Positions 100-45,105 are shown, counted from the first letter of the stretch. The stretch: DNA of 64,000 bases from a virus (IMGVR_UViG_3300032246_002821:32001-96000), one strand, 5' to 3'. Translations and numbers: made by a program. Notes: generated from the sequence alone by a model not told the origin.

Positions 100-528
100 T
101 TAATTGATATATGCAATAGATATTTTTTGTGGTTTGTCTTCTTCAGGAATATGCTGTTCCAATTCGATAGTAAGCATACCATTCTTTACTGTGGCACTCT
201 TTACTTCCACGTTGTCGGCCAGTTGCCAGCTGCGTTCGAACTTGCGGGTGGCGATGCCACGGTACAGGAAATTGCTTTCACTGGGTGTCTTGATCTCACC
301 TGTGACAGTCAGCAATCCCTTGTGCAAGGTCACATCCAGATCTTCCTGTGTGAAGCCGGCCACTGCCACTTCTATACTGAAGATGTTTTCTTCGTTCTGG
401 ATGATGTTGTAGGGAGGATAACCTGTGCTGTTTGTTACACTGGTAGTGGTGTGTAGGCGATTAAAGATGTCATCGAAACCTACGCTAACTCTGTGGAAGT
501 CGTGAAGTTGCTGTAATAGATTAGTCAT
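100..528 (-). CDS. Small heat-shock protein, Hsp20/IbpA family
   Basis: GFDDIF, YPPYNI, EVAVAGF, FLYRGIATRKFERSWQL, NGMLTI motifs of alpha-crystallin-domain proteins. Confidence 0.95.
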   Translation of the reverse strand: MTNLLQQLHDFHRVSVGFDDIFNRLHTTTSVTNSTGYPPYNIIQNEENIFSIEVAVAGFTQEDLDVTLHKGLLTVTGEIKTPSESNFLYRGIATRKFERSWQLADNVEVKSATVKNGMLTIELEQHIPEEDKPQKISIAYIN

Positions 529-607
529 TGCTTGTTTCTCCTTTGTTAAGCAAGAATATCAGACGGCCCATAAAGGCACCGTCCAACATTATATATGCAT
601 TCAGGTA

Positions 608-850
608 TTAAAGTGCAATACCTGCCGTACGCATTTCTTTTAATTTTTTCTGCCAACGCTTCTGGGCACGTGCTTTGGCCTTCTTGCGCTTCTGGCTGGG
701 TGTCTCGAAACGCTCGCGTTCGCGCAACGTCTGGAAGATACCATCGGATTGGATCTGTTTCTTCAATTTACGCAGGGCTTTGTTGACGTCGTTGTTGTGG
801 ACTTCCACGAACAGGCCCTTCTGTTTTAGATCGGTTACTTCAAAGCTCAT
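608..850 (-). CDS. rpsU: Ribosomal protein bS21
   Basis: VEVHNNDVNKALRKLKKQ..GIFQTLRERERFETPSQKRKK is the bS21 signature; start moved to MSFEV (ATG 850) behind GAGGG. Confidence 0.9.
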   Translation of the reverse strand: MSFEVTDLKQKGLFVEVHNNDVNKALRKLKKQIQSDGIFQTLRERERFETPSQKRKKAKARAQKRWQKKLKEMRTAGIAL

Positions 851-1238
851 TTTTTCCCTCTTGGTGCTTCTGGTAATTAGCATATCTTTCGGCCAGCCAA
901 GAATAAAGATCGAATGTCTGTCTGTGCGTGGCTTTGCCTATGGCATTGTCTCCCCAGGCCCACACATTATCTTGTGCCAGCAGATAGCCTTTCAGTATTT
1001 CTTTATTGCCCTGAAAGCGGCAATTTATCAAGCAGGCAGTGGCGTGTTTGGCTGCATTGATGCACCAGACATCGTCGGTCTCTTTGCTGCCATACAAGAA
1101 AACGGTCACGGGTTCAGGCATGGTTTTCACTATCTGACTGAAACGTTCCACATCCGACCATTCGCAATCCACTAGTAATATCTTGAAACGATTGCTCAGG
1201 TCCATATCAGGTACGGTTACTATCCTGCTTTCATCCAT
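840..1238 (-). CDS. Hypothetical protein
   Basis: 132-aa ORF overlapping both neighbours in an operon-like arrangement. Confidence 0.7.
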   Translation of the reverse strand: MDESRIVTVPDMDLSNRFKILLVDCEWSDVERFSQIVKTMPEPVTVFLYGSKETDDVWCINAAKHATACLINCRFQGNKEILKGYLLAQDNVWAWGDNAIGKATHRQTFDLYSWLAERYANYQKHQEGKNEL

Positions 1239-2670
1239 TTGCCAGCTTTTCTTCTATGGCCACTTGTTCCGTGACAGTCAGTTCGTCCAGTTCGATCTCG
1301 CCTCGACCCAGCCTGCCTATCTGCCAGTGCTGCCAGTGTTCATCGTCAGTGTAACTGGTATTGGTGGCTTTGTCAACTTGGATCCAATTGGTGCCATTGA
1401 ATTTGTACAGCAGATCTGGTTTGCCGGTGTTGATGAACAACTGGCCTATCTCACCCGTATCTGGGAATTCGGGGCCCAGTATGCTGCTGTGAGCATTGGC
1501 TGTGAAATCTTCTGCGTCTGCCCCTGCGGCCTGTTCCTTGGCGATGTCTTGCACTGCTTGCAACTGTGATTGCAGATGATTGATAGTGTGTTGTTTGCTT
1601 TCATTCTCTGCCAGCATATGATCCAGTGCTGTGGTCAACTTACTGATGGTGGCATAGTCCGTGTTATCCACCACAGGTGGCTGAGCTTCCAACTTAACGA
1701 TGGCTTCTGCTAATTCTTCTTCCAGTCGCTGTATCTCTGAGTCATCTTTTATCAGCACTTCGCGTATGACTTCCACAGGCACCTGGACTTCTCGGATCAC
1801 CTCCACAGGCACTTCGACTATCTTTTGGATCACTTCAGGATCCTGATGCACTTCTGCTTCTGCCTGCGCTTGCTGTTCAGCTTGATCTTCTTTGCGACGG
1901 TTCATGACCATTGTCACACCCAATACCATCGCCACTGCCAGTGGATCGAATACAGCCACGATGACGATGATCACCCAACGAACCGCTCGTTCCATCATAT
2001 CTTTGTTGGCATTGTCGTCGTATATCAGCTGTGCGATATACTTGATGGGACCAACTTCGGCTTCCATTTTCAGTTGTTCTTGGTTCAGCTTGAGCTTTTG
2101 TCTGCTGAGTTCTGTGATGCGATTGTTACTGGCATCTATGCTGGCATTGAGGCTGTCGCGCTCTTTCTTCTGGCTGTCACGTAATTTGGTAGCTTGTGTT
2201 GCCATAGCCGCAGTGCGGTTGTTGTCACGATCAGCATTAGCCCCTGATCCTTTGAGCAGGCTGCCGACCGCATCGTCCATCTGTGCCATGACTTTTCGGG
2301 CATCGTCGATGCGTCTTTGTTCTATGGCAATGTTCTGGTCCACTTGTTGCACCAGTAGATCCCCGCCCCCAGCCTGGCTGGTCACCTCGATGTGAGCACG
2401 GCTCAGGAACCCGAAAATACCCATACTGGTGATGAACATCAGCACTATCACCGCCAAGCTCATGTAGCTTTTGAGCAGCCATTTCAGATGACCCCAATAG
2501 GTGTGTAGCCACACCGTGGTGACTATCTTGCCCACTTCCAACACACTTCCCATGATAACGATGGGCCAGAACACACCGCTGAATATGGCAGTGAGACCGT
2601 AAATGCTGTAGTATGCTGCCACTCCGCTGATGCTGAGCGCAGTCAATAGCGCGATATAATTTAAAAACAT
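1231..2670 (-). CDS. Multi-pass membrane protein with long coiled coil
   Basis: About three N-terminal hydrophobic helices, a coiled-coil segment, a further TM (WVIIVIVAVFDPLAVAMVLGV) and VEVPVEVIREV repeats. Confidence 0.75.
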   Translation of the reverse strand: MFLNYIALLTALSISGVAAYYSIYGLTAIFSGVFWPIVIMGSVLEVGKIVTTVWLHTYWGHLKWLLKSYMSLAVIVLMFITSMGIFGFLSRAHIEVTSQAGGGDLLVQQVDQNIAIEQRRIDDARKVMAQMDDAVGSLLKGSGANADRDNNRTAAMATQATKLRDSQKKERDSLNASIDASNNRITELSRQKLKLNQEQLKMEAEVGPIKYIAQLIYDDNANKDMMERAVRWVIIVIVAVFDPLAVAMVLGVTMVMNRRKEDQAEQQAQAEAEVHQDPEVIQKIVEVPVEVIREVQVPVEVIREVLIKDDSEIQRLEEELAEAIVKLEAQPPVVDNTDYATISKLTTALDHMLAENESKQHTINHLQSQLQAVQDIAKEQAAGADAEDFTANAHSSILGPEFPDTGEIGQLFINTGKPDLLYKFNGTNWIQVDKATNTSYTDDEHWQHWQIGRLGRGEIELDELTVTEQVAIEEKLANG

Positions 2671-2673
2671 AAA

Positions 2674-3693
2674 TTATTTACCTGTTGTATCAAAGAATTT
2701 ACTGATGCTTTCTGGCATCTGTTGTCCACGACTTCGTTCCAGACTTGTCATATAATCCCAGAATAACACACGGTTCTGCAGATTGCAATCTAATAGTGGC
2801 AGTGACAACCGCTCACGTTCTGCAGGCAGCAACACATTGAGTTGTAAAAATTCCGGATCAGTGAGAGTGAATCTCTCCTGTGTGATGCCCAGATCTGTGA
2901 GATAATCAGCCAGTTGAGCCTGTCCCAGGATGCTGACTGCGTGTAGCACAGTATGCACACTGAGTCTGTTTGTGCATATAGATTGGAATTGTCGTAAATT
3001 ATCAGTTATCCTGTGCCAGCTGGCATTCCATCTGGTCCATTCGTAGCTGTCTGCGAAACCATCTATGCTGGCATTGATCCTCACGGCAGGATGCTCTATG
3101 AATTTTTTGGTTTTCCTGGTATTGTAGGTAAGATTGGTACTCAGGTTCATTGTGTCTATCTGATGATCCAGCAATAGCTGCTGCAACCACTCCACGATAT
3201 CATCATCATACAGTGGCTCGCCCCCCTGGATGTTGATGTTCAGGGGCATATCTATGGTATGGATGAAGCGTTGTATGCGCTCGCGTTGGCTGATGTGTAT
3301 GCTGAAACTTTTTAGTTTCTTTATCTTGTAGTAGCTTTTAAGATGTTCAGGCAGCTGGCTGATATCCTCACTCAACAGGCTGCTATATTCGGGCCTGCAC
3401 ATCAGGCACCTGAGATTGCACTGGTTGCCCACGTTTATGGTCAGGCTGTAATGGTTGGGTGTCTGGCTCAGGCCCAGCCTGGTGCTGATATCCCCTGCTG
3501 CTTCCGTGTGATGGCAGATGTCACAAAAATCGAATCCCGTGTAATTTTGCTGTTGCACATAGTGCATACGCTGCCGGCTGTCGACAAACGTCTGATCTGG
3601 TCTATCTTGTTGTACAGGATCATTGCAGCAAAGACCTATCTTGCCCACAGGATCGAATTTGGCCACCAGCCCTTTAAACGCCAGGCACTTCAT
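2674..3693 (-). CDS. Radical SAM protein with N-terminal extra Cys cluster (Twitch/SPASM-like)
   Basis: CNLRCLMC CxxxCxxC motif, GGEP motif, N-terminal CC and CDIC. Confidence 0.85.
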   Translation of the reverse strand: MKCLAFKGLVAKFDPVGKIGLCCNDPVQQDRPDQTFVDSRQRMHYVQQQNYTGFDFCDICHHTEAAGDISTRLGLSQTPNHYSLTINVGNQCNLRCLMCRPEYSSLLSEDISQLPEHLKSYYKIKKLKSFSIHISQRERIQRFIHTIDMPLNINIQGGEPLYDDDIVEWLQQLLLDHQIDTMNLSTNLTYNTRKTKKFIEHPAVRINASIDGFADSYEWTRWNASWHRITDNLRQFQSICTNRLSVHTVLHAVSILGQAQLADYLTDLGITQERFTLTDPEFLQLNVLLPAERERLSLPLLDCNLQNRVLFWDYMTSLERSRGQQMPESISKFFDTTGK

Positions 3694-5581: not shown

Positions 5582-5915
5582 ACCATACTTCCTCGATGCT
5601 AAATCCACCATAATAGCCGTTGTGCTCGTTGTGGTTTACCAGTGTGATGAAACCTGAGTCAGTCTGGATTTCCAAGAACTGTGTGTCGTGTACATCATAA
5701 CCATTTTCGTCGCTCACATCAGGACCGTCCTTGACTTCGTAGCACATGAATCTGCTACCAATCAGCTGTCGCACATCATCGTCTGTGCTCATGTAACGAT
5801 TTTCGCAGCAGCACTGACCGTTGTCACGCAATGTCAACTTGCCAAAGTCAAACTTCAAGGTGATGCTGTCTTCATCTACCTCTGCATCACGGATGATCAT
5901 ACCTTTAAGCTGCAT
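5568..5915 (-). CDS. Hypothetical phage protein (CCE.RY / NEHNGYYGGF motifs)
   Basis: ORF coupled to the upstream gene; acidic, with QCCCENRY and HNEHNGYYGGF. Confidence 0.7.
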   Translation of the reverse strand: MQLKGMIIRDAEVDEDSITLKFDFGKLTLRDNGQCCCENRYMSTDDDVRQLIGSRFMCYEVKDGPDVSDENGYDVHDTQFLEIQTDSGFITLVNHNEHNGYYGGFSIEEVWYADR

Positions 5916-6270
5916 TTTCCAAAACCTGTCTGATATGTTTGCAGTCCCGGCGGAAGCCATAACCTGGGCAAGTGCAGGAGCGTTGTTTGCCGTCTATGGT
6001 CACACTGTAGGTGCTGCCTTTGCTGCCTGTGACGATGTGTACACGCTGGCTCACGGCAATGGGTGGCACGGTGTAATCTTCACTGCACTCTTCGATCCAT
6101 TCCGCTGGAATGATGTGCAGGCCCTTGTGGTCCACAATGCACACTGCACCAGGCTCAGCCCACTTGGGAGCAGGCACACGCTCTCCGCGGTACTCATGAA
6201 ACTCACGCACCACCCCACGAGCATATAGATGACGCTTGGGCCACTTGGGATCACGAACCTTGACGTACAT
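5905..6270 (-). CDS. SWIM zinc-finger protein
   Basis: C-terminal YSVTIDG..SCTCPGYGFRRDCKHI (CxC...CxH); start MYVKV behind AAGGAG. Confidence 0.8.
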   Translation of the reverse strand: MYVKVRDPKWPKRHLYARGVVREFHEYRGERVPAPKWAEPGAVCIVDHKGLHIIPAEWIEECSEDYTVPPIAVSQRVHIVTGSKGSTYSVTIDGKQRSCTCPGYGFRRDCKHIRQVLENAA

Positions 6271-6391
6271 CTGTATGCTCCTTGTTAACTCGTTTGCGGT
6301 TGTAGCTGCCAGCACCCTTGCGAGCAACGACGATGCGCTGGCGATACTTGCGATCCGCCAATGCTTTTGCCTGTATGCTACGCTGTTTCAT
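6251..6391 (-). CDS. arfA: ArfA-like alternative ribosome-rescue factor (46 aa, absent from the ORF track)
   Basis: Manual translation MKQRSIQAKALADRKYRQRIVVARKGAGSYNRKRVNKEHTDVRQGS* aligns without gaps to the E. coli ArfA core [23 protein letters not shown]; AGGAG RBS and a sigma70-type promoter directly upstream. Confidence 0.8.
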   Translation of the reverse strand: MKQRSIQAKALADRKYRQRIVVARKGAGSYNRKRVNKEHTDVRQGS

Positions 6392-6417: not shown

Positions 6418-6445
6418 AATATAGCACACAAAGACCATCTGTCAA
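6418..6445 (-). promoter_or_regulatory. Sigma70-type promoter TTGACA-N16-TATATT for the arfA-like gene
   Basis: Read directly; has TGn extended -10. Confidence 0.75.
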
Positions 6446-6460
6446 CCACAAAAAGAAAGA

Positions 6461-6486
6461 TCTCCCGCAGATCAATCTGCGGGAGA
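6461..6486 (-). terminator. Intrinsic terminator
   Basis: tctcccgcag-atcaat-ctgcgggaga 10-bp stem followed on the minus strand by a T-rich tract. Confidence 0.8.
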
Positions 6487-6505
6487 CCACAATCATCAAG
6501 CTGTA

Positions 6506-7439: not shown

Positions 7440-7467
7440 AATATAGCACGTGATCTGATGGTGTCAA
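7440..7467 (-). promoter_or_regulatory. Sigma70-type promoter TTGACA-N16-TATATT
   Basis: Read directly. Confidence 0.75.
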
Positions 7468-7547: not shown

Positions 7548-10500
7548 TCAGAAGCGCCAGTCTAGACCTATCATACCAGTTGTGTTGGTATAGTGGTTGC
7601 CTCTTGCATAACTGATGCTGGCATTCACGCTGATGTCATCAGTCAGCTTCTCCTTGACAGTGGCTTTGATACTCTTGACATTACCAAAGTCCTTGGTCTG
7701 TGTGCTACGAGCTTCAACAGCAACATTGTCGTTGAACTCATATCTCAAACCTACATAGGGATTGGCTTGGATAGTGGTCTTGGCTGCTGGTGCAGTTGCT
7801 AACAGAGCATTACTGTCCCAGGCATTTGACACACTGCTGCGGACAACTGTTACACCAGCCAGTGGACGGAATCCCCACAGTGTATCAGCTGCATAAACAG
7901 TTAGATCACCATAAGTGTTGGTCTGTGCTGCTTTGCTTACACCACCGAAACCTATGTCTTGTAGACTGGTCTGTGTGGTGTAAACACCCTTGCTCATGCC
8001 CAATGTGCCTTTGATCCAAACATAGTCTTGCTTGGATAGAAGATAGATAGCACCAGCATAGGTGTCGCCGCTTGTGCGAGTGTTGACAAATCCAGCACTC
8101 TCACTGTTGCTAGCACGGAAAGCAAAACCAGTAGTGTTGTTCTCCGCAGTCTGTTGCCAGCCACCTGAAAAATTCTTGCTGTTCATGCGACCAGTTGTAG
8201 TAGTACGATCAAAGCTGGGAGTGATCCAAGCACCGTCTTTTGTGCTGAGAGCATCAACGATGAACGGATTGGTTCTGTTGGCTTTCATCACATCTGACAT
8301 AGCACCCACATTGGCTGTACGTGTAGTAACATATGGATTAGCCACTACCTGTGTACCAGTCACAGTGTTGGTTGATACTTGGTTACTGATAGTAGTCGTG
8401 CTAGCCACACTATTACTTGTACTAGTTGACTGTGTAGTTGAACCATTGCTAGTGACAGTTGACCCATCGCTGTAGGTTGTTACAGTAGTAGGGGTAGTAT
8501 CAGTTACAGTTGTCACTGGAGTAGTATTTGTAACAACGGTAGTTATTGGAGTAGTTGTAGTGATCACTGTGCTGAACGGTGTGCTGGTTGTTATAGTAAC
8601 AGTTCTAGTTACTACTAGATTGCTGCCCTGTCGCTGTCCAGCAAATGCTGATCCTGTAGTGATGGTTGGTGTCCCAGTTGTGATATTAGCAACCTGCACA
8701 GGAGTACCTGGTGTGCTGGTAGTGGTTGTAACTGTTGTACCATTTGTTGATGTTGTTGTTACAACTGGATTACCTGGAGCAGTTCCTGTTATATAAACAC
8801 TTGGTCTCCATTCGACACTTACTAGATTATTGTTCTGTGTAAGTGTCCAGTTCACACCAGCTACTGTACCGCTTGTTGTGACAAACGCACCAGTGATACT
8901 GCCGCTGGCATTGATCACATTCACATAAGGACTGTTCAGTACTACATTAGTCGATGTGTTACCCACTATCTGTGGAGTATATGTGGCATTTGTTCCCAAT
9001 GTCAACATACCATTTACAGTCAATTGACCATAAGCAACACCATTGAACCAAGTAGTGATATTGCCATTGCTGGTCATATCACCGTTTACCACAGTGTTAG
9101 CACCCGCACCAATCGCAAGTGTTCCATTGTTAGTAACAGTTACGGCATTGATACCAACGCCCAGGTTGTCAGTTAATGTGCTGCCTGTGTTGATGTTCAC
9201 TGCCGATAATGGTTGGAAAGTAAACGCTCTTGGGAAGTTGCCATATGTGCCTGAGGGTGCACCTGTGTTAGCAGGATCGCCTAAGTTGCCAGCAAGTGTA
9301 GTTGTTGCTGTGGTAGCATTAGTTCCAATGTTTACCACTGCGGTGCTGTCAGTTGTGCGAACTGCACCAGCAACTGAACCAGTTCCTAGTTGATTAAGCA
9401 CACCATTAGTTGATAACTGGACATCACCAGTGATAGTTCCGGCATTGTTGATAATCGCTCCAGTGTTTGTACCTAGATTGATTATGGCTATACCGCTGTT
9501 GCCAGTGATAGTGCCTGTAGCATTATTGTTGATAGTGCTGCCTGCTGTGGTGTTGATAAAGTCTACACCAACATCGCCAGTGATGCTGCCATTGTTATTA
9601 ATCGTAGCATTATTGCCCATAAGTACTGCTGGCATACTATTAGTGCCAGTTGGTGTGCTAGTGATGCTACCGTCGTTGTTTAGTACTGTATTACCATATC
9701 CCATCATAACAACACCGTCGCCATTAGTAACTGCGATAGTACCAGTTGCTGTGTTATTAACTGTCGCTGTGCCTGTGCTGCCGGTGCCATTGAAACTAGT
9801 TACGATGCCGTGTGCTGAATAGCCATTGCCCAGCAGTGTGTTACCGCTAGTGTTAGCAGTGATATCGCCGCTGTTTGTCACTGTGATGTTGCTAGTAGTA
9901 TTAGTACCCTGCTGAGCATTGATGCCAGTGCCGTTGTCTGTAGTGATAGTTCCAGCATTAGTGATAGTGGTTGTGCCAGCATTTGTACTATTGATACCAT
10001 TGCTGTTAGCACCTGTGACGTTAATCGTACCGTTGTTTGTGATGGTACCATCTGTAGGCTGTCCTAATGTAAAGGTAGTAGTTGTACCTGTGGGATTAGT
10101 GCTGGTTGTAGCAGCAGGAGCACCGTTGGGATTGTTTGTGCTCATTGTGCTGTTATAACCACCAGCAGTTCCGCTAGTTGTACCACCAGTTGCACTTGGT
10201 CCGCCACCGTTCTGGTTGGCTACCAGACCTACTGTGCTCTGTCCTGGTGTACCGCTGCTGTTGACGATACAGGCATTGCTACCGCCCCAAGCACCCTGAC
10301 AAGCACCAAAGCCTGGGCTGCTTGTCCAACCCTGTGCCGTGATGCCATTGTAAGGACCAAACTCTGGATTGTACAGCCTGTTGTTGCCAGCACCGTTCAC
10401 TGTCAGTGTGGGCGCACGATACCAAGGACCGTAATCTCCTGCCCAATATGAACCGTCGATACCATACATGCTGACCTTGGCATAGGCCACCGTCGCTGCC

Positions 10501-11395: not shown

Positions 11396-11431
11396 ATTTG
11401 ATCTCCACTTGGATCAATTATATAGCTGTGA

Positions 11432-11896
11432 TTATATGCGCCTATAAAAATAATGGCCGCCTATCTGCGCCGTTTTTACCAGTCTGGGATCGCGAAACGG
11501 ACGATTGTTGAAAAATTCAGCACTGTTGCTGACATCAGTATGAAAGCCCAGCATAACTAGTTCTGCACTGGCCAAACTGCGCTCATATTGCTCTTGGCGT
11601 GTGATTATCAGGGTTTTATCGCAGGCGAATGTGAATTGACAACGGCCCTGCCAGCGTTGGTACACAACATTGCAGATGGTATTGCCATAACGACCGCTGT
11701 TAACCCTGTTCATAATAACTTTGCCCACAGCAATGCGGCCAATATCCGATTCATTACCTGCTTCAAAATATATGGCTGTGGCCATACATTGCAGTTGTTT
11801 TGCATCGGGTTTGGGCGCGGTCCAACTAAACCATTCTGCCTGTGCTGTGTTTAAGCCGATGATTAAGGTTATCACAGCAATGTAAAATCTAATCAT
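11432..11896 (-). CDS. Cell wall hydrolase, SleB/Hydrolase_2 family
   Basis: CMATAIYFEAG.E...G..AV..VIMNRV, VVYQ, CQFT, IGGHYFY; signal peptide; start MIRF behind AAAGGAGG. Confidence 0.9.
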   Translation of the reverse strand: MIRFYIAVITLIIGLNTAQAEWFSWTAPKPDAKQLQCMATAIYFEAGNESDIGRIAVGKVIMNRVNSGRYGNTICNVVYQRWQGRCQFTFACDKTLIITRQEQYERSLASAELVMLGFHTDVSNSAEFFNNRPFRDPRLVKTAQIGGHYFYRRI

Positions 11897-12114
11897 ATTA
11901 CCTCCTTTGGTATTCCGCAGACAGTTGTCCTGGGAATATATAGGGTCAGCGATTAATGGAAAATCTAGCAAGTTAGGCGCACAAGGCCGAGTGTGCTGAC
12001 ACTGTTGTTCAGACTGTTGTGTCACGAGGCTGTCTGATGTAGCCCTACCTGGTAGACCAGGAATTGTTTTAACTGCGTATCAGCCGCTTACGCAAGCTGG
12101 TTGTACTGGTATTT

Positions 12115-12410
12115 AGTGGCCCGTTCTGTTGCCGGGTGGAGCCATACCCCTGGTGGTTACGCTGCTAGAGCGAACTCCTGAGTAGCAAAGTTATCGTTTG
12201 CATTTGTCATTTTGCTTTCTGTCTCAGCTGGTCTTTATCACACCTGTCGATCCTATTTCGCCCCCATCAAAGATACACTGACTCGAAACAGTGCCGGCCA
12301 GTCACCTATCAGTTAGTGGTGTGCTATCCAGTGTATCTATGGTGGAGGCGCCGGAGTACTGCCCTCCGGGTCCAGTGAGTTTATTCCACTTCGCCTCAAC
12401 GACATAAGCA
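12115..12410 (-). ncRNA. ssrA: Two-piece (circularly permuted) alphaproteobacterial-type tmRNA
   Basis: Acceptor piece ends GGACCCGGAG-GGCAGTA-CTCCGG-CGCCTCC-ACCA at 12340. The intervening segment 12339-12266 is closed by the 10-bp stem agatacactg/cagtgtatct. The coding piece starts GGGGGCGAAATAGGATCGAC at 12265 (G3-U70 pair). Tag frame 12201-12157 reads ANDNFATQEFALAA*. Outer ends are approximate. Confidence 0.93.
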
Positions 12411-12413
12411 TAT

Positions 12414-12421
12414 TATTTATA
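12414..12421 (-). promoter_or_regulatory. T4-type late promoter TATAAATA in front of the tmRNA
   Basis: Exact TATAAATA a few nt upstream of the inferred tmRNA precursor 5' end. Confidence 0.65.
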
Positions 12422-12440
12422 GCATTAAATGTGTAGTATG

Positions 12441-15400
12441 TCAACTATTTCTGGGCGATACATCAAATTGACCGTCGGGCCCTGAACCGCCCCAACCAGT
12501 TGTTTCGTTTCTGTCCATTCCAGTTTTCATTGTTTTGAGTATGGCCTGGAATTGGTTACGTATCTTGTCCAGCAAAGGAGCCAACACCTGGCTTCCCAAC
12601 AATGTGGTGCCCAATGCATCCACATTGGATGGTGTCACTTGGCTGAGCATCTCCAACATACCATATACCATCTGATCTGTCAGGAAGGGATTATCATATT
12701 TGGTTGTACCGATGCTGCCGTATAGGATTTTATTACACAGGCTCAGCATCGTGCCCACGAACATCTCATTATTGGTCAGTAATAACCCTTTTTCGTCTAT
12801 GGTGGCAAACAGGTTCTGGCTACGGTTCAGTCCCACCACATAGCACTTGTTACCGATGACCAGTGTATTACGGCCTACAACTTGGCTCAACACATCCATA
12901 CCTATGGTTTTCTTTACCTGCTCGCTGGTGTTGGCCCATTGTATGTCGTAATATGCTTCGTCGGCCTGTGCAGGCAACATATGAGCAGGATCGTTTCCGC
13001 TGTTGATCAATGCTGTATTTCTCAACTGTATATAGATGTCATCTGGATTTTGTGGTGCAGGAGGATCCAACAACACATCAGGCACTATGGGCATTTCGCC
13101 ATTGTAAACAGTCTGGGCGAAACCATAGGGATCATTGTAATATTTGCTCCTGGGCAGATCGAATCGACCTGTGTCTATACCCAGCTCTGTCAATAATTCT
13201 TTGTTTTTACCCTGACGCATAGCTGCTTTTATGCTGTCTCCCCAGATGTCATCGGTGGCAACTCGTTCGAGGAAATGTCCCATTTCTCCATAACCCATAT
13301 TCATTCCGTGATAGGGCAGCTGGCTTGCGAACACGAATGCGTTGGTGGGGTTCTGATCCAGTCCATCTGTGTTGAAATGATCTATACCGAAAGTCTTGCT
13401 CATATGGTTTTCTTTAAGCAACTGAGCACAACTGGCCAAATGCGCTGCTTCGCTGGCAGCAAGCAGTTTTTTCAATGTGGGATCAGTCGTGTTTTTTATC
13501 ACAGTCAGCTGTGCTTCCACATAAGGGATGAAATCTGTAAGACAAGCGTCCAGACTGGTATAAACTATACCATCATAAGGGGTGGTGCCGAAATCGTGGA
13601 TCACTGGCAGACCAGTTGCACCCAGCGGCACTGCATTGCCATCAGCATCTGTGACATTGCTCAGATATTGAGTGCTGGTGCTGGTATCTCCAGTGATGGG
13701 ATTGGTTATAGTTTTGGTTGGCAGTGTACCTGTCAAACCTCCTGTCAAACTGTTGCTGACATCCGCTGCGTTCACCACTTTTGTCAGTTTATTAGTGGGA
13801 GCACCAGCCCAGGGCACACTCACTTTAGGTGTGATAACGATAGTGTCCACATTAGTGCTGCCAGCTGGAGGTGTGCCTCCACCTGATACACTTGTTCCGT
13901 CAGGAGCAGGTACATTATAGAGACCGTTTATTATGTTGTGCATGATATTCAATCTGCGTTGAAGTTCCTGCCCATCAGTGGTGGCCATCACCGCATCATT
14001 GGCCGCGATGATATGTGGCAGAGTGTCGTTATGCACATAACCAGCACAAGTACCCATGAAATCTGCCATAGTTATTTCGCCTATGGTACCGCCACCGAAA
14101 CCATATGTGCTCTGTATCTCGTCTACGGCAGGCTGATAGTATGGCGTGCTCATCTGGCTCACGTGGTTCAGATCCAGGCCAGGATCCACTTTGCTCAACA
14201 CCATACCCACCTGTTGGAAATTTTCAGCTCTGGTGATGCCCAGGCTCATGAAGTGTTCGCCCAGTTCTTTGAAGTTATTGTGCGGACTGCTCTGGCTCAT
14301 ATTGGGCATCATGGTCTTGTAATCTGTCAGCTGTCCCAGATGTGTAACAGGTGTGCTCACATTGAAATGGCTGCTGACACTAGCCACTGCTGTGGGATCG
14401 CTGATCTGTGTCAGCACATTCTGCACACTCTTGTCGTACCTGGGATCATCCACGCCTGCCAGAGGCACACCAGCTGTGACCAATTTGGTAGTGAGACCTG
14501 TCTTGGTTCCCAGACCAGCATTGAGTATCTGATTGGCCACGTTGCCAGGTTGCATAAGCCTGGTGGGATTACTGGTGCTGAATGTGCCCATATTCAGCAT
14601 ATCAGTGCTGGCGCCAGCAAGATTCCTGGTTAGACTGGTCACTCCATAACTTAGCACATCATTCATATTGCGGAAATTGGCCCCCAACGCACCAGGACCT
14701 TGGGTACCGAATTTTGCCGCACTGGCTTCACTAGCTGCGCCCACCATCTGATTGGCTATGCCGCTATAAGCGTTGGATACGCCCAGATTGTTCATCATTG
14801 CATTGAGGCCGCCGCCCACTGCACCCCCCACCATATTATTGGCCACGTTCTTGATCATACCCTGGAGTCCACCATTGGCCGCGAACTGCTGCATCACGTT
14901 GGGCAGATTCATGGGATTTTGCATTATTGCATTGAGGGGCGCCATCAGTTGTCCCAGTGCTCCATTGATAGCACCATTTGCGATGCCAGCCAGCTGTGGT
15001 GGCAACACTCCTGTGAGGCTGGGTAGTATGCTACCGCCCAGTTGGCTTATCTGTTGCATTATGGGGCCAGTGATGCTGCTCATAGCACTGCCCAATGCTC
15101 CCTGAGCGAATCCACCCAGGCCCTGCCCGCTCATTATGCCGCTGATGCCGCCCTGCAAGGCACCCTTCATCATATCGCCAGCCACACCTGTGATCCCAGC
15201 TGCTCCCAGCGCATTGGTCAACTGGCTGGTCAGTCCATTGGTTGCCATTCCCAGTGCGTTCTGTAATCCAGCTGCGCTCATGAGACTGGCGGGATTCATC
15301 CCGCTGCTGGCACAGCCAGCACCTCCCGCGCCTGGTGCGCCGGGCATACCAGGAGGACCTCCTGCTGCACCAGCAGGTGGTTTGGCATTGGGATCTATGT

Positions 15401-15950
15401 TTTGATCAATGAGGCTGTTTGTACCTGTACCAGCCACTTTAGCACTGTCACCGCCATTGCTGTTTAATTGATCTGCCCAGGTGGTTTTGCTGTTGTTGGT
15501 AAACCCTTGCAAACCACTCACATACTGGGCTAATTCTGCATCACTTGCACCATTTTTCACCAGTTCGCCATATTTTTGCACCGCTTGGCAATTACCACAG
15601 GCGTAACTCATTGCCACACCGATAGCCTGGGCATTGGGACTGGCGTTCTCGATGGCACCACCGCTTGCTTTATAAATGTTCTGATAGTACTGATCGCTGG
15701 CTTGGTATTGCAGTGTAGCCAGTGCTGTAGGTTGATCTATCTTGGTGTCTGGCGTGACAGTGGTCAATCGTCCTGTGTTGGGATCTATATACTGGCTGGT
15801 GCCTCCCACACGCCAGGCGCTGAAACTGCCGTCACGTACATTGGTATCAGCGTGAGCACTCAATAATTGACCACTTCTAGGGATAGCACCTTCGGTACTA
15901 TTGATAACTTTCATAGCCTGTACCAGGCCTGGTCCTTGTAGTGTTGCCAT
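12441..15950 (-). CDS. Large virion (baseplate/tail) protein with a putative N-terminal lysozyme-like domain
   Basis: 1169 aa within the PAAR operon; the N-terminus KVINSTEG..AHADT..WRVGG..VTPDTKID..A..L resembles the phage lysozyme layout; Gly/Ala/Met-rich middle. Confidence 0.6.
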   Translation of the reverse strand: MATLQGPGLVQAMKVINSTEGAIPRSGQLLSAHADTNVRDGSFSAWRVGGTSQYIDPNTGRLTTVTPDTKIDQPTALATLQYQASDQYYQNIYKASGGAIENASPNAQAIGVAMSYACGNCQAVQKYGELVKNGASDAELAQYVSGLQGFTNNSKTTWADQLNSNGGDSAKVAGTGTNSLIDQNIDPNAKPPAGAAGGPPGMPGAPGAGGAGCASSGMNPASLMSAAGLQNALGMATNGLTSQLTNALGAAGITGVAGDMMKGALQGGISGIMSGQGLGGFAQGALGSAMSSITGPIMQQISQLGGSILPSLTGVLPPQLAGIANGAINGALGQLMAPLNAIMQNPMNLPNVMQQFAANGGLQGMIKNVANNMVGGAVGGGLNAMMNNLGVSNAYSGIANQMVGAASEASAAKFGTQGPGALGANFRNMNDVLSYGVTSLTRNLAGASTDMLNMGTFSTSNPTRLMQPGNVANQILNAGLGTKTGLTTKLVTAGVPLAGVDDPRYDKSVQNVLTQISDPTAVASVSSHFNVSTPVTHLGQLTDYKTMMPNMSQSSPHNNFKELGEHFMSLGITRAENFQQVGMVLSKVDPGLDLNHVSQMSTPYYQPAVDEIQSTYGFGGGTIGEITMADFMGTCAGYVHNDTLPHIIAANDAVMATTDGQELQRRLNIMHNIINGLYNVPAPDGTSVSGGGTPPAGSTNVDTIVITPKVSVPWAGAPTNKLTKVVNAADVSNSLTGGLTGTLPTKTITNPITGDTSTSTQYLSNVTDADGNAVPLGATGLPVIHDFGTTPYDGIVYTSLDACLTDFIPYVEAQLTVIKNTTDPTLKKLLAASEAAHLASCAQLLKENHMSKTFGIDHFNTDGLDQNPTNAFVFASQLPYHGMNMGYGEMGHFLERVATDDIWGDSIKAAMRQGKNKELLTELGIDTGRFDLPRSKYYNDPYGFAQTVYNGEMPIVPDVLLDPPAPQNPDDIYIQLRNTALINSGNDPAHMLPAQADEAYYDIQWANTSEQVKKTIGMDVLSQVVGRNTLVIGNKCYVVGLNRSQNLFATIDEKGLLLTNNEMFVGTMLSLCNKILYGSIGTTKYDNPFLTDQMVYGMLEMLSQVTPSNVDALGTTLLGSQVLAPLLDKIRNQFQAILKTMKTGMDRNETTGWGGSGPDGQFDVSPRNS

Positions 15951-17254
15951 TATGTACTAGTTCCTGATATGCTGGCGTAGAGATTGGTCAGAGCCGATCC
16001 TTTGACGCCCAAGTTTGCCAATTCCATGATATTGACACTGCTGGGATAAAACACCGGTGGGCTGAATTGGGCGGTGGCTGGCTCGAAAGTATCGCTGACA
16101 ACGTTTAGCACACCAGGTATGGCTATGGGTGCTCCAGTGCTACGCATATGTTTCAAACCAGGAGCCGGTACCCGTAATTTGGGATCTTGTGAGGCACCTA
16201 TGTTTACCACGCTGGTCTGAGCTAATATATCAGCACTGCCGCTCTTGCTGAAATATCCTTTGAGTGTTTGCTGGTCATCTGCCACGCTGGGAATAGATGC
16301 GCCCATCAGTCTTGCTATATGGTCGTGATTGGTGTATGGTTTAAGATTCTTCAAACCTTGCTGGAAATTTTCAGGTGCACTTTGGGCCAACTCTTGTAGT
16401 TGCTGGCTCATATGTAAACTGTCGTGTACGTAAGAAATATCGCTGCCGAATACCCTGGTATCGCTCTCGAAATCTCTTAGATGTGTACCGCCGGCATCGC
16501 TGCCAGCTATTCCTTGGCCGTGATTATATGTGGTTGTGAGGTTGCCACTTATGGCACTGTTATTAGCTATAGTAGCTGGTAGATGAACAAATATACCAGT
16601 GATGGGGTCTTGCATAGGTGGATGATAATTATGTACCATATCAGCACCGCTCAATAATCCACTAGTGGTAAAATCATAAAGGGGTTTATTAAAAGTATGT
16701 ATAGCGCCGCTGACATTCGCATCATTGCTTTGCAAAGATCTTTGTTTGTCGTAATTGTCCACGATCCAATAGCTGACATTACTTACAACACTCACACTGG
16801 GTTTTTCCAGGTATAGTTGTGTGTTGCTTACTATCATTCCCACACGGCCCAGGAAGATATTAGCCACGCTAGTGGTCACACTGATGTTGGGAATATACAA
16901 GTCCTGTCCTGTCTTGATATTTGCTATGAAATAAGTGTTGTATCCTGATACAGTGGCATTGGTGCCGTAGGTGGTGATGTTGCCCACGCTGTTGTAGTTG
17001 TATACCAAGTTGGGATAGAACTGGATAGCACGGTAGCTGCTGCCAGTTATGGCAACATTGGCATTAGCGGTTAAAACCATGCTGTTGTTGTTGCTGACAT
17101 AACTGACATAGCCCACAAACACCCCAGTGCTGTTGGCAATATAGCTGCCTCTGCTGAAGTTGTTGACAAATTTGGTGTTGGATCCAGTGACCACATTGCT
17201 TGTTTTACTACAAGTGACAGTGCCATTGGGACTCAGGTTGGCTGTATAAGGCAT
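15950..17254 (-). CDS. Virion structural protein (beta-rich N-terminus)
   Basis: Start MPYTANL overlaps the PAAR stop; three repeats of a V.G.NT.F....GxxIxxx motif. Confidence 0.65.
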   Translation of the reverse strand: MPYTANLSPNGTVTCSKTSNVVTGSNTKFVNNFSRGSYIANSTGVFVGYVSYVSNNNSMVLTANANVAITGSSYRAIQFYPNLVYNYNSVGNITTYGTNATVSGYNTYFIANIKTGQDLYIPNISVTTSVANIFLGRVGMIVSNTQLYLEKPSVSVVSNVSYWIVDNYDKQRSLQSNDANVSGAIHTFNKPLYDFTTSGLLSGADMVHNYHPPMQDPITGIFVHLPATIANNSAISGNLTTTYNHGQGIAGSDAGGTHLRDFESDTRVFGSDISYVHDSLHMSQQLQELAQSAPENFQQGLKNLKPYTNHDHIARLMGASIPSVADDQQTLKGYFSKSGSADILAQTSVVNIGASQDPKLRVPAPGLKHMRSTGAPIAIPGVLNVVSDTFEPATAQFSPPVFYPSSVNIMELANLGVKGSALTNLYASISGTST

Positions 17255-17541
17255 TAGGGTCCTATGATCACCTGGGCTTTTACTGGTATCATTTTGTGTT
17301 TGCAGATATCGTGATTGCCTAGATAAGCTGCTGGTCTGCCATTGATTATGACCGAATGGCTGCAATTCAAAACGATAGGATTGGGAGGATGTTTTCTTTT
17401 CTTGCCAGATGGATGCGGTGTAACCATATCGCCCTTGCGGCCAGCTGGTTTACCGTTAAAGATAGTATCCAAAGCACCCATAAATTGTTTACCACGTGCG
17501 GTATTAAAACTACCCAATACACTGGGAAAAAATCCTGCCAT
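17254..17541 (-). CDS. PAAR-domain baseplate spike tip protein (gp5.4-like)
   Basis: FNGKPAGRKGD..TPH and INGRPAAYLG..D.C.H motifs. Confidence 0.85.
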   Translation of the reverse strand: MAGFFPSVLGSFNTARGKQFMGALDTIFNGKPAGRKGDMVTPHPSGKKRKHPPNPIVLNCSHSVIINGRPAAYLGNHDICKHKMIPVKAQVIIGP

Positions 17542-17553
17542 TTTTATCTCCTG

Positions 17554-17862
17554 TTATAGAGCTTTGGCAATAGTCAACCCTGTGGTTTTAGCCAGGTATT
17601 GATTAGCCAACTCTGATTCTGTAGGACCGTGAAAGGCCACTGCGTGTTTATTTAACACCACAGAAGCAGCGTTGGGGCCCATGCTAAAAACCGCAGGTGC
17701 TAGACCAAAACCGCCTTGTGGCGTATTGATCAGTACGTGCGGTTTGGTTAGTCTATAGTAAGTATCGGTTTCTTCTGCGATCCTGGCGACTACTTCCTCG
17801 CCAGCAGTGGTTTTGAGAGTGACTACATCGTTGGCTTCATAACTTGTTTTCGTTAATAACAC
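17554..17862 (-). CDS. Sm-like-fold hypothetical phage protein
   Basis: DVVTLKTTAGEEVVARI..E.D.YYRLTKP pattern. Confidence 0.55.
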   Translation of the reverse strand: MLLTKTSYEANDVVTLKTTAGEEVVARIAEETDTYYRLTKPHVLINTPQGGFGLAPAVFSMGPNAASVVLNKHAVAFHGPTESELANQYLAKTTGLTIAKAL

Positions 17863-18103
17863 GTTTATTTTCCTGGATATCTGAGGGATGCAACTGGGTC
17901 AGTCCAGTATAGCCACCCTCTACCAGTAATTTATCGTTATAGTATAGCTGTGGTACCGTTTTGTGACCTTGAGCTGTCAACCATTCCCTGAGATCAGGGT
18001 TCTTGGTGATGTTGACTTCTTCGTACTGTTCGCCTAGCTTTTTGAGATATGCTTTTGCGCCGTCACAATAGGGACAAAAATCTTTGGTATATACTATTAT
18101 CAC
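17837..18103 (-). CDS. Glutaredoxin (NrdC/NrdH-like)
   Basis: CPYC active site, TVPQ, GGY; located in the nrd operon. Confidence 0.92.
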   Translation of the reverse strand: MIIVYTKDFCPYCDGAKAYLKKLGEQYEEVNITKNPDLREWLTAQGHKTVPQLYYNDKLLVEGGYTGLTQLHPSDIQENKRVINENKL

Positions 18104-18789
18104 TTGCGGTCCCCCATAAGCTGTAGCAAGCTAGTAAAGATGTTTACAAAATCCAGATAAAGATTCAATGCACCAAATACACCAGCTTTTTCACGCTCGT
18201 CTCCCCACAGATCATAATATGTCTGCTTGATCTGTTGCATATCCCAGGCAGTCAAACCTGTGAAGATGATAACACCCAGCGCCGAGCAGATCATCTGTAA
18301 TGCACTGCTCTGCAGGAAGATGTTAACCAATCCAGCGATGATGATCCCGAAAAGGCCCATCATCAAAAAACTGCCCATATTACTAAGATCGCGTTTGGTT
18401 GTATAGCCCCACAATGCGGTGGTGCCGAATGTAGCGGCTGTGATGAAGAACACCTGGGCAATGCTGGCCATGGTATAAGCCACAAAAATACTGCTGAGGC
18501 TGAGTCCCATCAGGGCACTGAACACAAACAGGCAGATCTTCGCTGTGTCTAAGCTCATGCTATTGGCTTTGAACCCCATGAAAAACGCCATACCCAGTGG
18601 TGCCAGCATAACCACCCAAGCCACCGGTGTGCCCCATATGGCAGCGATCAATGCTGGTGTGGTTCCCACGATGAAAGCGATGGCACCACTGATGGCCAGT
18701 GCTGCTGTCATATAATTAAAAACACCGATCAAATAACGACGTAATCCTTGATCGTATGATTGTACACTATCTGTGTAATTGTCGTACAT
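18100..18789 (-). CDS. Bax inhibitor-1/YccA family membrane protein
   Basis: YDQGLRRYL..V.NYM, seven hydrophobic segments, YTTKRDLS, GALNLYLDFVNIF. Confidence 0.9.
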   Translation of the reverse strand: MYDNYTDSVQSYDQGLRRYLIGVFNYMTAALAISGAIAFIVGTTPALIAAIWGTPVAWVVMLAPLGMAFFMGFKANSMSLDTAKICLFVFSALMGLSLSSIFVAYTMASIAQVFFITAATFGTTALWGYTTKRDLSNMGSFLMMGLFGIIIAGLVNIFLQSSALQMICSALGVIIFTGLTAWDMQQIKQTYYDLWGDEREKAGVFGALNLYLDFVNIFTSLLQLMGDRK

Positions 18790-18799
18790 TGTCATCTCC

Positions 18800-19903: not shown

Positions 19904-19912
19904 AATAACCTC

Positions 19913-42614: not shown

Positions 42615-42634
42615 AACACCGCTGTTGCGGTGTT
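42615..42634 (-). terminator. Intrinsic terminator
   Basis: aacaccgc-tgtt-gcggtgtt followed on the minus strand by a T-run. Confidence 0.7.
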
Positions 42635-42896
42635 AGTTTGCTATCTCTTCTTTGATATTAGGTCGTCTCTGTTCCAGCTCTTGTAGCACTTTGCTGGTCA
42701 GTTCTTTCACAGATATATCCATTCCAGTGTCTTCATTTGTTCCTGCCAGATAACCTTTGGCCACCAACCAACTCACAGTCTCATAAACACCGTATTGATG
42801 GCCGCCACAGATACCTTCGTGGTAACCGCGACGATAATTGAGGTAGATTCCCACCATAAACACTGCAAACAACAGGGCTGCTGTAATAATGTCCAT
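42633..42896 (-). CDS. Small membrane-anchored hypothetical protein
   Basis: N-terminal TM helix. Confidence 0.6.
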   Translation of the reverse strand: MDIITAALLFAVFMVGIYLNYRRGYHEGICGGHQYGVYETVSWLVAKGYLAGTNEDTGMDISVKELTSKVLQELEQRRPNIKEEIAN

Positions 42897-42905
42897 ATAA
42901 CACCT

Positions 42906-43082
42906 TTATTTTTTTGGTTTTACTTCCAGGATTTTCTGGATTGTCACCGAACCACCCACACCGTATTGCATCATGACCAGACGCTTGGCGCTCGTCTGGT
43001 CATTTGCGTTCACAGTAACAGTGAACTGTGTCTGTGGCTCGCCTTTCTTGTAGACGTAGCCTTTGATATCATATTGTTTCAT
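42906..43082 (-). CDS. Small hypothetical protein
   Basis: MKQYD start overlaps the ATPase stop (ATGA). Confidence 0.6.
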   Translation of the reverse strand: MKQYDIKGYVYKKGEPQTQFTVTVNANDQTSAKRLVMMQYGVGGSVTIQKILEVKPKK

Positions 43083-43879: not shown

Positions 43880-43895
43880 CTGTTGTTATAATACC

Positions 43896-43923
43896 AATAT
43901 ACAGCCTTTTTACAAAGTGTCAA
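43896..43923 (-). promoter_or_regulatory. Sigma70-type promoter TTGACA-N16-TATATT
   Basis: Upstream of the ATPase, back-to-back with a plus-strand TAAATA at 43927-43932. Confidence 0.7.
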
Positions 43924-43951
43924 GCATAAATATTCCAAACAGGAGATAAAA

Positions 43952-44278
43952 ATGGCAATTATTGTTTTAAGATGGACGGTGACCAGAACAAATTTGGATC
44001 AGCCTTTCGATGATGCTACCAATCCGTTCGAAGGATACTGGTTAAATTTACACGCACAGCAATTACGTTCTGGAGAAATTTTGGAAAAAAGTTTCCAATT
44101 CTCTCCCGATAATTTAACCAGAACAACTGTTTATCGATTCCCTGATTGGCAAACATTTGCCAGATTGACAATGGATCGCGCTCTCGACCCTCAGATCAAG
44201 AGCAAGACCTTGTTAGATGTACCGTTTATTCTAAATAACTTTGGTGGTCTTAATATCGATATACGTTACGAAGCATAA
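43952..44278 (+). CDS. Hypothetical protein
   Basis: AGGAG RBS, TAAATA upstream. Confidence 0.65.
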   Translation: MAIIVLRWTVTRTNLDQPFDDATNPFEGYWLNLHAQQLRSGEILEKSFQFSPDNLTRTTVYRFPDWQTFARLTMDRALDPQIKSKTLLDVPFILNNFGGLNIDIRYEA

Positions 44279-44976
44279 TTGCTTCTAGGATATCTTTCAC
44301 GATAATGTCTCTCGCCCGGAATTAAACTCTGGGCGATTTCATATTGACGGGGATTTTTACTACCGATCCAGGCCTCGTTATCGAACCTCCAGTGTGGTTC
44401 GGTAGGATGAGGTTTGAATTGCGTGATCTGCCTGTTTACTTTGTCTTCTGGATGAACTAAAGTGTCCAGTTTTTTCACGTAGTCGCTGCGAGCCCACCAA
44501 AAATTCCCTGAAAAATGTGGCCAAGGATCAGTATTCCAATTGGTTCCGGAACAATCATGATCTGCTAATGCAGCAACATTATCCTGCCATTTCTCGATGG
44601 CTCCCCAATTCATGAATTCACGCCAGTCCCCCACATTGGGATCTCCCCAGCGCAACAGCCCTTTCAAGTGGATGTAACAGATATAAAAATTTTCTTCGCT
44701 GGCTTTGGCCTGCTGGTGCATGAAGTTTAACGTGGGATATTCATGAAATGCAGCATGATTGCACACGGATACCAGGCGTGTCTTGGGTTTAGGTTTGCTG
44801 GCATTCTTCGCGGTTAACCAAGGTTCGAAAGTCCAGGGCTGCCCATTGGCACACACATTGATTTCTGTTACAGCTTTTTCCAAACCTGATTTTTCTATCA
44901 GGGCCCATTGTTGGTCCGCGACATCGCGCCAACCACCCAGTTCGTTCACGTGCCAAAAAACTCGAATATCAGTCAT
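44266..44976 (-). CDS. Hypothetical protein, possibly glycan-related
   Basis: YIHLKG, WREFM, HFSGNFWWARS motifs; function not established. Confidence 0.6.
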   Translation of the reverse strand: MTDIRVFWHVNELGGWRDVADQQWALIEKSGLEKAVTEINVCANGQPWTFEPWLTAKNASKPKPKTRLVSVCNHAAFHEYPTLNFMHQQAKASEENFYICYIHLKGLLRWGDPNVGDWREFMNWGAIEKWQDNVAALADHDCSGTNWNTDPWPHFSGNFWWARSDYVKKLDTLVHPEDKVNRQITQFKPHPTEPHWRFDNEAWIGSKNPRQYEIAQSLIPGERHYRERYPRSNYAS

Positions 44977-44993
44977 ATTTTACCTTGTTGATT

Positions 44994-45067
44994 TGGTGGA
45001 GAATAAGAGAGTCGAACTCTTGATTGAAGCTTGCAAAGCTACCGTTATCCCGTTTAACTAATTCCCC
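44994..45067 (-). tRNA. tRNA-Ala(UGC) with encoded CCA
   Basis: GGGGAAT/ATTCTCC acceptor with G3-U70 and A73, D arm GTTA/TAAC, anticodon loop TTTGCAA, T arm AAGAG-TTCGACT-CTCTT. Confidence 0.92.
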
Positions 45068-45076
45068 AGTATTAAA

Positions 45077-45105
45077 AGTATACTATTTACGGTTGATTCT
45101 GTCAA
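45077..45105 (-). promoter_or_regulatory. Dual promoter for the tRNA: TTGACA-N17-TATACT with TAAATA in the spacer
   Basis: Read directly, 10 nt upstream of tRNA G1; TAAATA at 45084-45089. Confidence 0.7.

Follow-up and report, generated by a model that had tools for sequence, protein, structure and literature searches.

A two-piece tmRNA and an ArfA-like protein in one jumbo phage genome: probably separate acquisitions that are both available early in infection

Introduction

In Escherichia coli, the ribosome-rescue protein ArfA (YhdL, PF03889) is translated from a message that RNase III cleaves to a non-stop form, and transfer-messenger RNA (tmRNA) therefore represses it, the textbook feedback being that ArfA is made only when tmRNA fails; in solved ribosome complexes the core of the protein touches RF2 and occupies the vacant mRNA channel. 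The tmRNA of Alphaproteobacteria is a two-piece molecule (RF01849) with permuted pieces, an encoded CCA and a tag of the form ANDN…LAA. Here we compare these systems with a window of viral DNA, by which we mean the whole stretch of 64,000 nucleotides that was analysed (bases 32001-96000 of the 182,953-bp IMG/VR viral contig IMGVR_UViG_3300032246_002821, CheckV completeness ~54%), where an ArfA-like gene (arfA) and a two-piece tmRNA gene are found together with genes for ribosomal protein bS21, the small heat-shock protein Hsp20, a BI-1/YccA-family membrane protein and tRNA-Ala. An earlier reading made from the nucleotide sequence by itself (hereafter the sequence-only reading) took these genes for a single quality-control toolkit that is switched on in stages. 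We propose instead that they are probably separately acquired translation and proteostasis genes, lying in separate units with separate histories, and that both rescue routes are available early in infection.

Several of these genes have been described in phages before. tmRNAs have been reported in huge phages (PMC7162821) and in Sinorhizobium phage AP-J-162 (PMC11242549). Phage-encoded ArfA is likewise not entirely new, as gp30 of the pelagiphage HTVC027P, also a short ArfA-domain protein in an alphaproteobacterial phage, was previously annotated as ArfA (PMC12753301), and gp63 of pelagiphage HTVC034P (41 amino acids) carries the same ArfA motif. Both of these are small podophages with no reported tmRNA, whereas the ArfA of the window belongs to a jumbo phage that has a tmRNA and is coupled to a SWIM zinc-finger gene. 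In bacteria, a survey listed ArfA in 0 of 2,376 Alphaproteobacteria (PMC11633108), the class to which the host of the window phage appears to belong. Among 900 phages, Chen et al. (2022) found Hsp20 and Clp genes to be among the commonest neighbours of bS21, which in those phages is surrounded by head genes and whose expression was inferred to be late (PMC9723584).

Two ribosome-rescue genes

The arfA gene (6251-6391, on the minus strand, which holds nearly all genes of the window) has an AGGAG ribosome-binding site and encodes a 46-amino-acid protein ending at its own TGA stop codon. Its match to the Pfam ArfA family is marginal (26.4-27.2 bits against a cut-off of 25.5, and 24.9 bits in a six-frame search) and spans profile positions 18-41 only, and the best solved-structure matches are E. 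coli ArfA chains, over the segments that contact RF2 and occupy the mRNA channel (E about 0.1). An exhaustive profile search gathered 87 ArfA-like clusters, mostly of 35-80 amino acids, and Pfam ArfA was matched by 31 of 32 sampled family members, with a best E of 3.4e-11. Across 32 sequences, A8, G26, S29, Y30 and R32 never vary; the first of them aligns with A18 of E. coli ArfA, a residue needed for RF2 activation. The phage and E. coli proteins have in common the core A-x-L-x-D-x-x-[YF]-R-Q-R-[IV]…K-G-x-G-S-Y-x-R-K, within which the channel motif of the window protein reads RKGAGSYNRK (K-G-K-G-S-Y-x-R-K class). Comparison of codons 1-34 with the homologue on a related 80-kb contig (L018) gave 11 synonymous and 0 non-synonymous changes, the pattern of a gene that is evidently under purifying selection.

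The phage protein differs from its E. coli counterpart (72 amino acids) in an N-terminus that is ~10 residues shorter and in features that bear on its regulation: translation ends at a stop codon of its own, a hydrophobic C-terminal tail is missing, and there is no significant 3′ hairpin, the fold of the arfA mRNA, examined for an RNase III-type hairpin, being not unusual (z -1.47). Therefore the control exerted in E. coli through a non-stop mRNA and tmRNA feedback cannot apply to the phage protein. The end of arfA is overlapped by the start of an open reading frame (ORF) for a SWIM zinc-finger protein (5905-6270, minus strand; Pfam SWIM, 23.7 bits), and this overlap, which is kept in every close relative (L018-L021, L136, L137), is best read as translational coupling. 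A predicted complex of the ArfA-like alignment with Caulobacter RF2 scored 0.11 and is used here as evidence neither way.

The two-piece, alpha-type tmRNA gene (12115-12404, with the wider limits 12115-12448, minus strand) is matched over the full length of the covariance model (positions 1-355), scoring 135.5 bits with alpha_tmRNA (RF01849, cut-off 50) and 95.2 bits with tmRNA_permuted (RF04321, cut-off 47). The sequence-only reading is supported where it gives a single window two independent ribosome-rescue routes, here a tmRNA and an ArfA-type factor. Its order is permuted, the acceptor piece, which ends in CUCCACCA (an encoded CCA), lying upstream and the coding piece after it. The tag encoded by the coding piece is ANDNFATQEFALAA, followed by a UAA stop, and retains the hydrophobic-AA degron end; the tags of relatives (ANDNFATQDFALAA, ANDNVATYEMALAA, ANDNAPVEMRLAA and ANDNNASRLALAA) are of the ANDN... 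alpha type throughout. A Hydrolase_2 gene adjoins the tmRNA gene, whose position is syntenic in two close relatives (L018, L137) and in a complete relative, G408.

Compared with the tmRNAs of bacteria and huge phages, that of the window is distinguished by being phage-borne with no SmpB gene in 183 kb, by a hybrid promoter (see below) and by being missed by ARAGORN, the tool used in surveys. ARAGORN called neither this tmRNA, which Infernal detects, nor the unannotated tmRNA of Sinorhizobium phage Phosso. The latter (record 349553-350242) spans 690 nt and hence has a long intervening segment. No SmpB gene was found in the 183-kb contig (~54% of the genome), in Phosso, in Agrobacterium phage Atu_ph07 or in Vibrio phage 2.275.O, nor is there an RF-1-domain gene in the 183-kb contig. 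Both rescue routes would therefore use host partners, the tmRNA presumably relying on host SmpB. Vibrio phage 2.275.O (L050, record 60694-60885) does encode an RF-1-domain protein (37 bits, in a 204-amino-acid frame), which may be an ArfB- or peptidyl-tRNA-hydrolase-type factor and thus a different rescue route in this phage group.

The source phage and its host

The contig derives from a jumbo myovirus of the Atu_ph07/Phosso type from a freshwater lake. Its UvsX-like recombinase is closest to those of Phosso (469 kb; 70% identity) and Atu_ph07 (490 kb; 65% identity), the next-best relatives being Vibrio phage 2.275.O, CBB and GAP32, and the window further encodes DnaB-type and other helicases, a DNA polymerase, NrdA, NrdB and a gp32-like single-stranded DNA-binding protein. 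By DNA there is no close cultured relative, as a megablast search with the first 13 kb of the window against 50,697 phage records gave no match, and near-identical DNA is confined to freshwater or unspecified metagenomes. An alphaproteobacterial host is suggested on several grounds: the cultured phages most closely related to this one infect Sinorhizobium and Agrobacterium, the tmRNA belongs to the alpha type with tags all of the ANDN... form, and all eight bacterial relatives of the BI-1 protein are from Alphaproteobacteria.

Promoters and the order of expression

Two classes of promoter-like sequence can be told apart on the contig. The late-type class is the heptamer ATAAATA, 31 of 39 copies of which stand no more than 60 nt ahead of a gene start, mostly at 15-25 nt and with no -35 element, as against a median of about 4 copies upstream of starts for 7-mers of the same composition. 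The same heptamer, at the same 15-25 nt before starts and with no -35 element, occurs in the late promoters of T4 (TATAAATA) and of the related phages CBB and GAP32, where ATAAATA is the late motif and which also encode a gp55-like sigma factor (PMC5259590). The early-type class, TTGACA-N16-(TG)nTATATT, has four copies, at 7467, 7278, 6865 and 6445, the last of which is the promoter of arfA (6418-6445, minus strand, TTGACA-N16-(TG)cTATATT), as the sequence-only reading had it. It follows a 13-pair stem and T run resembling an intrinsic terminator (6459-6488, minus strand), which closes the preceding small-gene unit, and it is kept in three relatives (L018, L019, L021) although DNA further upstream diverges. 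More widely, a promoter of the form TTGAC[AT]-N16-18-TAnnnT precedes 31 of 65 distinct viral ArfA loci (chance expectation <1%).

The promoter of the tmRNA gene (12414-12444, minus strand) combines the two classes. TTGACA (12444-12439) is followed after a 17-nt spacer by TATAAATA (12421-12414), so that the whole reads as the sigma70 consensus TTGACA-N17-TATAAA(TA) with the late motif inside; the late element claimed for this gene is thus present, and the promoter is not purely late, having a perfect TTGACA at 17-nt spacing. Unlike the late promoters of CBB, GAP32 and T4, the motifs at the tmRNA gene and at the tRNA array are fused to a consensus -35 element. Among the ATAAATA sites of the contig, TTGACA at N16-17 occurs only at these two, the second being the leader of the tRNA array at genome 141418-141450 (equivalent to about 109418-109450 in window numbering, and so outside the window), and both have the wider context AAATAGTTGACAT in common. 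They look like a dedicated early-plus-late promoter for stable RNAs. The hybrid form recurs at the tmRNA genes of three close relatives, L018 and L137 among them, and of the ArfA-bearing lineages G405 and G408, and in two further lineages the tmRNA promoter is TTGACT-N17-TATACT, lacking the late motif; the TTGAC(A/T)-N17 -35 element is kept in all five lineages. A strong sigma70-type promoter in five lineages argues that the tmRNA is probably made from the start of infection by host RNA polymerase. Transcription should thus begin in the first minutes of infection, and the embedded late motif may extend it into the late phase.

The sequence-only reading placed bS21 downstream of TAAATA at 2675-2680, which is here a candidate late motif for bS21. 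The element is GTAAATA (2675-2681, minus strand), without the first A of the lineage's ATAAATA, and it stands 4 nt before the ATG of a gene for a 479-amino-acid membrane protein, 1.8 kb upstream of bS21. It is kept before the homologous 479-amino-acid gene in one relative (L136), and as a class GTAAATA shows only slight enrichment ahead of genes (5 of 18 copies, versus 31 of 39 for ATAAATA). The bS21 gene (608-850, minus strand; 80 amino acids, GAGGGA ribosome-binding site, PF01165 at 62.5 bits against a cut-off of 27, phrog_21469) lies with arfA in a single co-directional string whose intervening genes overlap or abut, with no ATAAATA between window positions -10306 and 10981 and, by a simple scan, no minus-strand terminator between the arfA promoter and hsp20. 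In L136 the corresponding string (ArfA-SWIM-DUF7448-…-bS21-Hsp70-Hsp20-ClpS) is again on a single strand and free of ATAAATA.

Next to bS21 come the genes for Hsp20 (100-528, minus strand; 142 amino acids, PF00011 at 70.8 bits against a cut-off of 20.8, and phrog_432 at 146 bits) and, just outside the window, ClpS (genome 31742-31975, minus strand; 88 bits). This bS21-Hsp20-ClpS block is conserved in the lineage: Atu_ph07 has the same order (bS21…Hsp20-TK-ClpS), G408 has ClpS-Hsp20-bS21, and in Vibrio phage 2.275.O ClpS adjoins bS21. The window therefore resembles the phages of Chen et al. (PMC9723584) in the association of bS21 with Hsp20 and a Clp-system gene, but differs from them in that its bS21 stands in a string of small genes behind sigma70-type promoters, far from the capsid genes. 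In L136 (5362-7269), an inserted Hsp70/DnaK gene separates bS21 from Hsp20. In the window these two genes are 79 nt apart, and the spacer holds a stable hairpin (553-590, z -2.5); a ROSE thermometer on hsp20 was considered and rejected, there being no Rfam match at E up to 1.

Distribution among phages and Alphaproteobacteria

The genes in question do not appear to travel as one unit. Phosso has tmRNA and bS21 and lacks ArfA and BI-1, Atu_ph07 and Vibrio phage 2.275.O have bS21 only, no tmRNA was found in Atu_ph07, Vibrio phage 2.275.O, CBB or GAP32, and ArfA was found in none of the five cultured relatives. ArfA and the two-piece tmRNA do occur together in the window phage and close relatives including L018 and L137, and ArfA, tmRNA and bS21 are all present in G408, which lacks BI-1. 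The co-occurrence in relatives anticipated by the sequence-only reading is thus found for these three genes in close relatives and in G408, and breaks down in Phosso and Atu_ph07 and for BI-1, which among these phages is seen only here; the idea of a toolkit inherited as a whole is not supported by this comparison. The histories differ, with the bS21-Hsp20-ClpS block conserved in the lineage, tmRNA patchy, ArfA moving in position and BI-1 unique to the window phage.

ArfA-like ORFs were found on at least 105 IMG/VR contigs. At the 80 viral ArfA loci that we examined, nearly all are of 36-50 amino acids with their own stop codon; tRNAs are near ArfA at 15 of the 80 and tmRNA lies within 10 kb at none, co-occurrence being seen at the level of whole contigs only. 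Permuted tmRNA exceeded the Rfam cut-off in 4 of 16 ArfA contigs of at least 42 kb (G408 being the only complete genome among them), and in UvsX-matched control contigs (38-128 kb) neither tmRNA (0/14) nor ArfA (0/14) was found. Set against these controls and the cultured relatives (1 of 5), the tmRNA rate on ArfA contigs is no more than suggestive, with a one-sided Fisher p of ~0.07, in a test that is confounded by fragment size and relatedness.

Some viral loci depart from the usual arrangement. On a 353-kb contig (L045), a 41-amino-acid ArfA (10001-10126) heads an array of ~19 tRNA genes (11396-20126) that also includes a GOLLD RNA (Rfam, 205.8 bits). In six contigs (L115, L122, L124, L128, L133, L134) the ArfA motif forms a fusion with a conserved ~90-amino-acid C-terminal domain, with the pattern …NKAGNYTKP-MRK-LFE-IKAG-KGG-PGQWSARKAQ…, and in Roseobacter phage CRP-212 (L011) an unannotated ArfA-like ORF of 41 amino acids (~1498-1623) lies out of frame within the gp38 coding sequence.

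With the phage-type profile, chromosomal ArfA-like ORFs of 35-50 amino acids, some of them longer-tailed, were also found in 8 of 401 sampled Alphaproteobacteria. Their neighbours (a photolyase-related gene, a PfkB kinase or an MscS channel) are those of ordinary chromosomal contexts, and the carriers include L037, L038 and L041, which are genomes of 1.2-1.3 Mb with a GC content of 25-30%, and L040, L042 and L044. The notion that ArfA is foreign to Alphaproteobacteria is rejected on the strength of these eight genomes.

Proposed explanation and alternatives

We suggest that a jumbo myovirus of the Atu_ph07/Phosso type accumulated several host-like genes unit by unit. The lineage-conserved bS21-Hsp20-ClpS block would be one such unit. 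Another would be the two-piece tmRNA, which would use host SmpB and alanyl-tRNA synthetase (AlaRS). Its sigma70-type promoter is strong and has its -10 element set within the lineage's late motif, so that transcription probably begins as soon as infection does and perhaps continues throughout. The 46-amino-acid ArfA, which unlike its E. coli counterpart should escape repression by active tmRNA, would most likely bring host RF2 to ribosomes whose mRNA channel is empty. Further units would be the BI-1/YccA gene, added to the nrdAB unit, and a nearly complete set of tRNAs, tRNA-Ala among them. The two rescue routes would then probably be available together early, raising the clearance of non-stop ribosomes, and would not act in sequence, with the hybrid promoters keeping the tmRNA and the tRNA array on throughout. 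In this account the gene identities, synteny, promoter sequences and distribution are observed, whereas biochemical activity and timing are inferences.

Some observations weigh against this explanation. The order of expression is read from promoter motifs, and the conserved GTAAATA could be a weak late promoter feeding bS21. A tblastn search with CBB_244 found no gp55-like late sigma factor in the 183 kb, ~54% of the genome. The Pfam score of the ArfA-like protein is marginal, and its RF2 recruitment is a prediction. Finally, the excess co-occurrence of ArfA and tmRNA hints at a functional link that a description as independent accessory genes understates.

The staged programme of the sequence-only reading, in which ArfA would first clear ribosomes without tagging and tmRNA would then tag products for degradation, with bS21, during virion synthesis, draws on the sigma70-type promoter of arfA, here and at the 31 viral loci noted above, on the TATAAATA within the tmRNA promoter, on the conservation of GTAAATA before the gene upstream of bS21, and on the tie between bS21 and late expression in Bacteroidetes phages (PMC9723584). 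We nevertheless consider such an early-to-late switch improbable, as the tmRNA promoter has a perfect and conserved -35 element at 17 nt and in two lineages lacks the late motif, while bS21 has no ATAAATA and stands in the arfA string. Moreover, the phage encodes ClpS, which in E. coli inhibits the degradation of ssrA-tagged proteins by ClpAP. For phage ArfA a single time course has been published, that of gp30 of HTVC027P, and it found expression both early and late (PMC12753301).

A coupled dual rescue without staging, in which a tmRNA-insensitive mini-ArfA, the tmRNA and the tRNAs of large alphaproteobacterial phages would keep translation going while host defences or phage nucleases cleave mRNAs and tRNAs, is a second alternative, which we regard as unlikely. 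It would account for the pairing of ArfA with a permuted tmRNA in the window phage, L018, L137 and the four large ArfA contigs, set against none of the 14 lineage-matched controls with either gene, for the ArfA genes that head tRNA arrays in other phages, and for an own stop codon that frees the gene from the repression by tmRNA to which E. coli ArfA is subject. That association is not significant and is confounded as described, however, the two genes are not adjacent at any of the 80 loci, Phosso has a tmRNA and no ArfA, and the link to defence is conjectural. It is still harder to credit, and in our view very improbable, that the ArfA-like peptide is no rescue factor and binds ribosomes as a modulator or inhibitor, blocking vacant mRNA channels, for instance to shut off the host. 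The absence of ~10 N-terminal residues of E. coli ArfA and the restriction of the Pfam match to profile positions 18-41 would suit such a role, but the residue equivalent to A18 and the KG-GSY-R channel motif are invariant, and the chromosomal homologues in Alphaproteobacteria stand in housekeeping contexts.

Beyond separate acquisition with both routes available early, a bolder generalization may be put forward as a tentative possibility, and we hold it with considerable doubt. In large alphaproteobacterial phages, a constitutive mini-ArfA that is insensitive to tmRNA may time and again accompany a two-piece tmRNA of the phage's own; host polymerase would transcribe both from the first minutes, as a dual rescue that keeps phage translation alive while mRNAs or tRNAs are under attack (by host defences, for instance), and the chromosomal mini-ArfA of SAR11-sized and other alphaproteobacterial genomes may be an overlooked third route in a class thought to use tmRNA and ArfB only.

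A phage that has both a tmRNA and an ArfA freed from tmRNA control offers a clean genetic handle on why phages carry tmRNA. If the mini-ArfA is active, ArfA-type rescue would be far more widespread than surveyed (at least 105 viral contigs and ~2% of the sampled Alphaproteobacteria), the feedback that confines ArfA to conditions of tmRNA failure would not be universal, and phages would be putting resources into freeing stalled ribosomes as soon as they infect. A way for a phage to keep stable RNAs expressed across its whole programme is suggested by the hybrid sigma70/late promoters of the tmRNA and the tRNA array. For surveys there is also a caution, in that counts of phage tmRNAs made with ARAGORN are underestimates and gene callers miss ArfA ORFs of 40-46 amino acids.

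BI-1/YccA, tRNA-Ala and other genes

The remaining genes named in the sequence-only reading are present as claimed, bS21, Hsp20 and BI-1/YccA by Pfam matches and tRNA-Ala by both ARAGORN and Rfam. The BI-1/YccA-family membrane protein (18100-18789, minus strand; 229 amino acids) is encoded directly after nrdA-nrdB and matches PF01027, the family of E. coli YccA, over its full length (199.3 bits, cut-off 34.1); unlike the E. coli gene it is phage-borne, and its link to FtsH or to translation quality control is putative. Its eight bacterial relatives are 44-57% identical, that of Rhizobium tropici being the closest (57%). BI-1 is rare in phages: the protein has no PHROG family match, it matches 15 of 50,697 phage records, mostly unannotated fragments, and it was not found in the five cultured relatives or at the syntenic site of the complete 338-kb G408.

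The gene for tRNA-Ala(UGC) (44994-45067, minus strand) has promoters of both types according to the sequence-only reading. It has a clear sigma70-type promoter, TTGACA-N17-TATACT (45077-45105, minus strand), and the supposed late element is only GTAAATA within the spacer. A role for this tRNA as the partner that charges tmRNA is rejected, since it is 1 of 24 tRNAs on the contig, the majority of them in the array at 141.7-151 kb, and since tmRNA is aminoacylated directly by AlaRS and not via tRNA-Ala. The window also encodes two radical-SAM-domain proteins, one within the arfA-to-bS21 string (2674-3693) and the other at 60082-61143.

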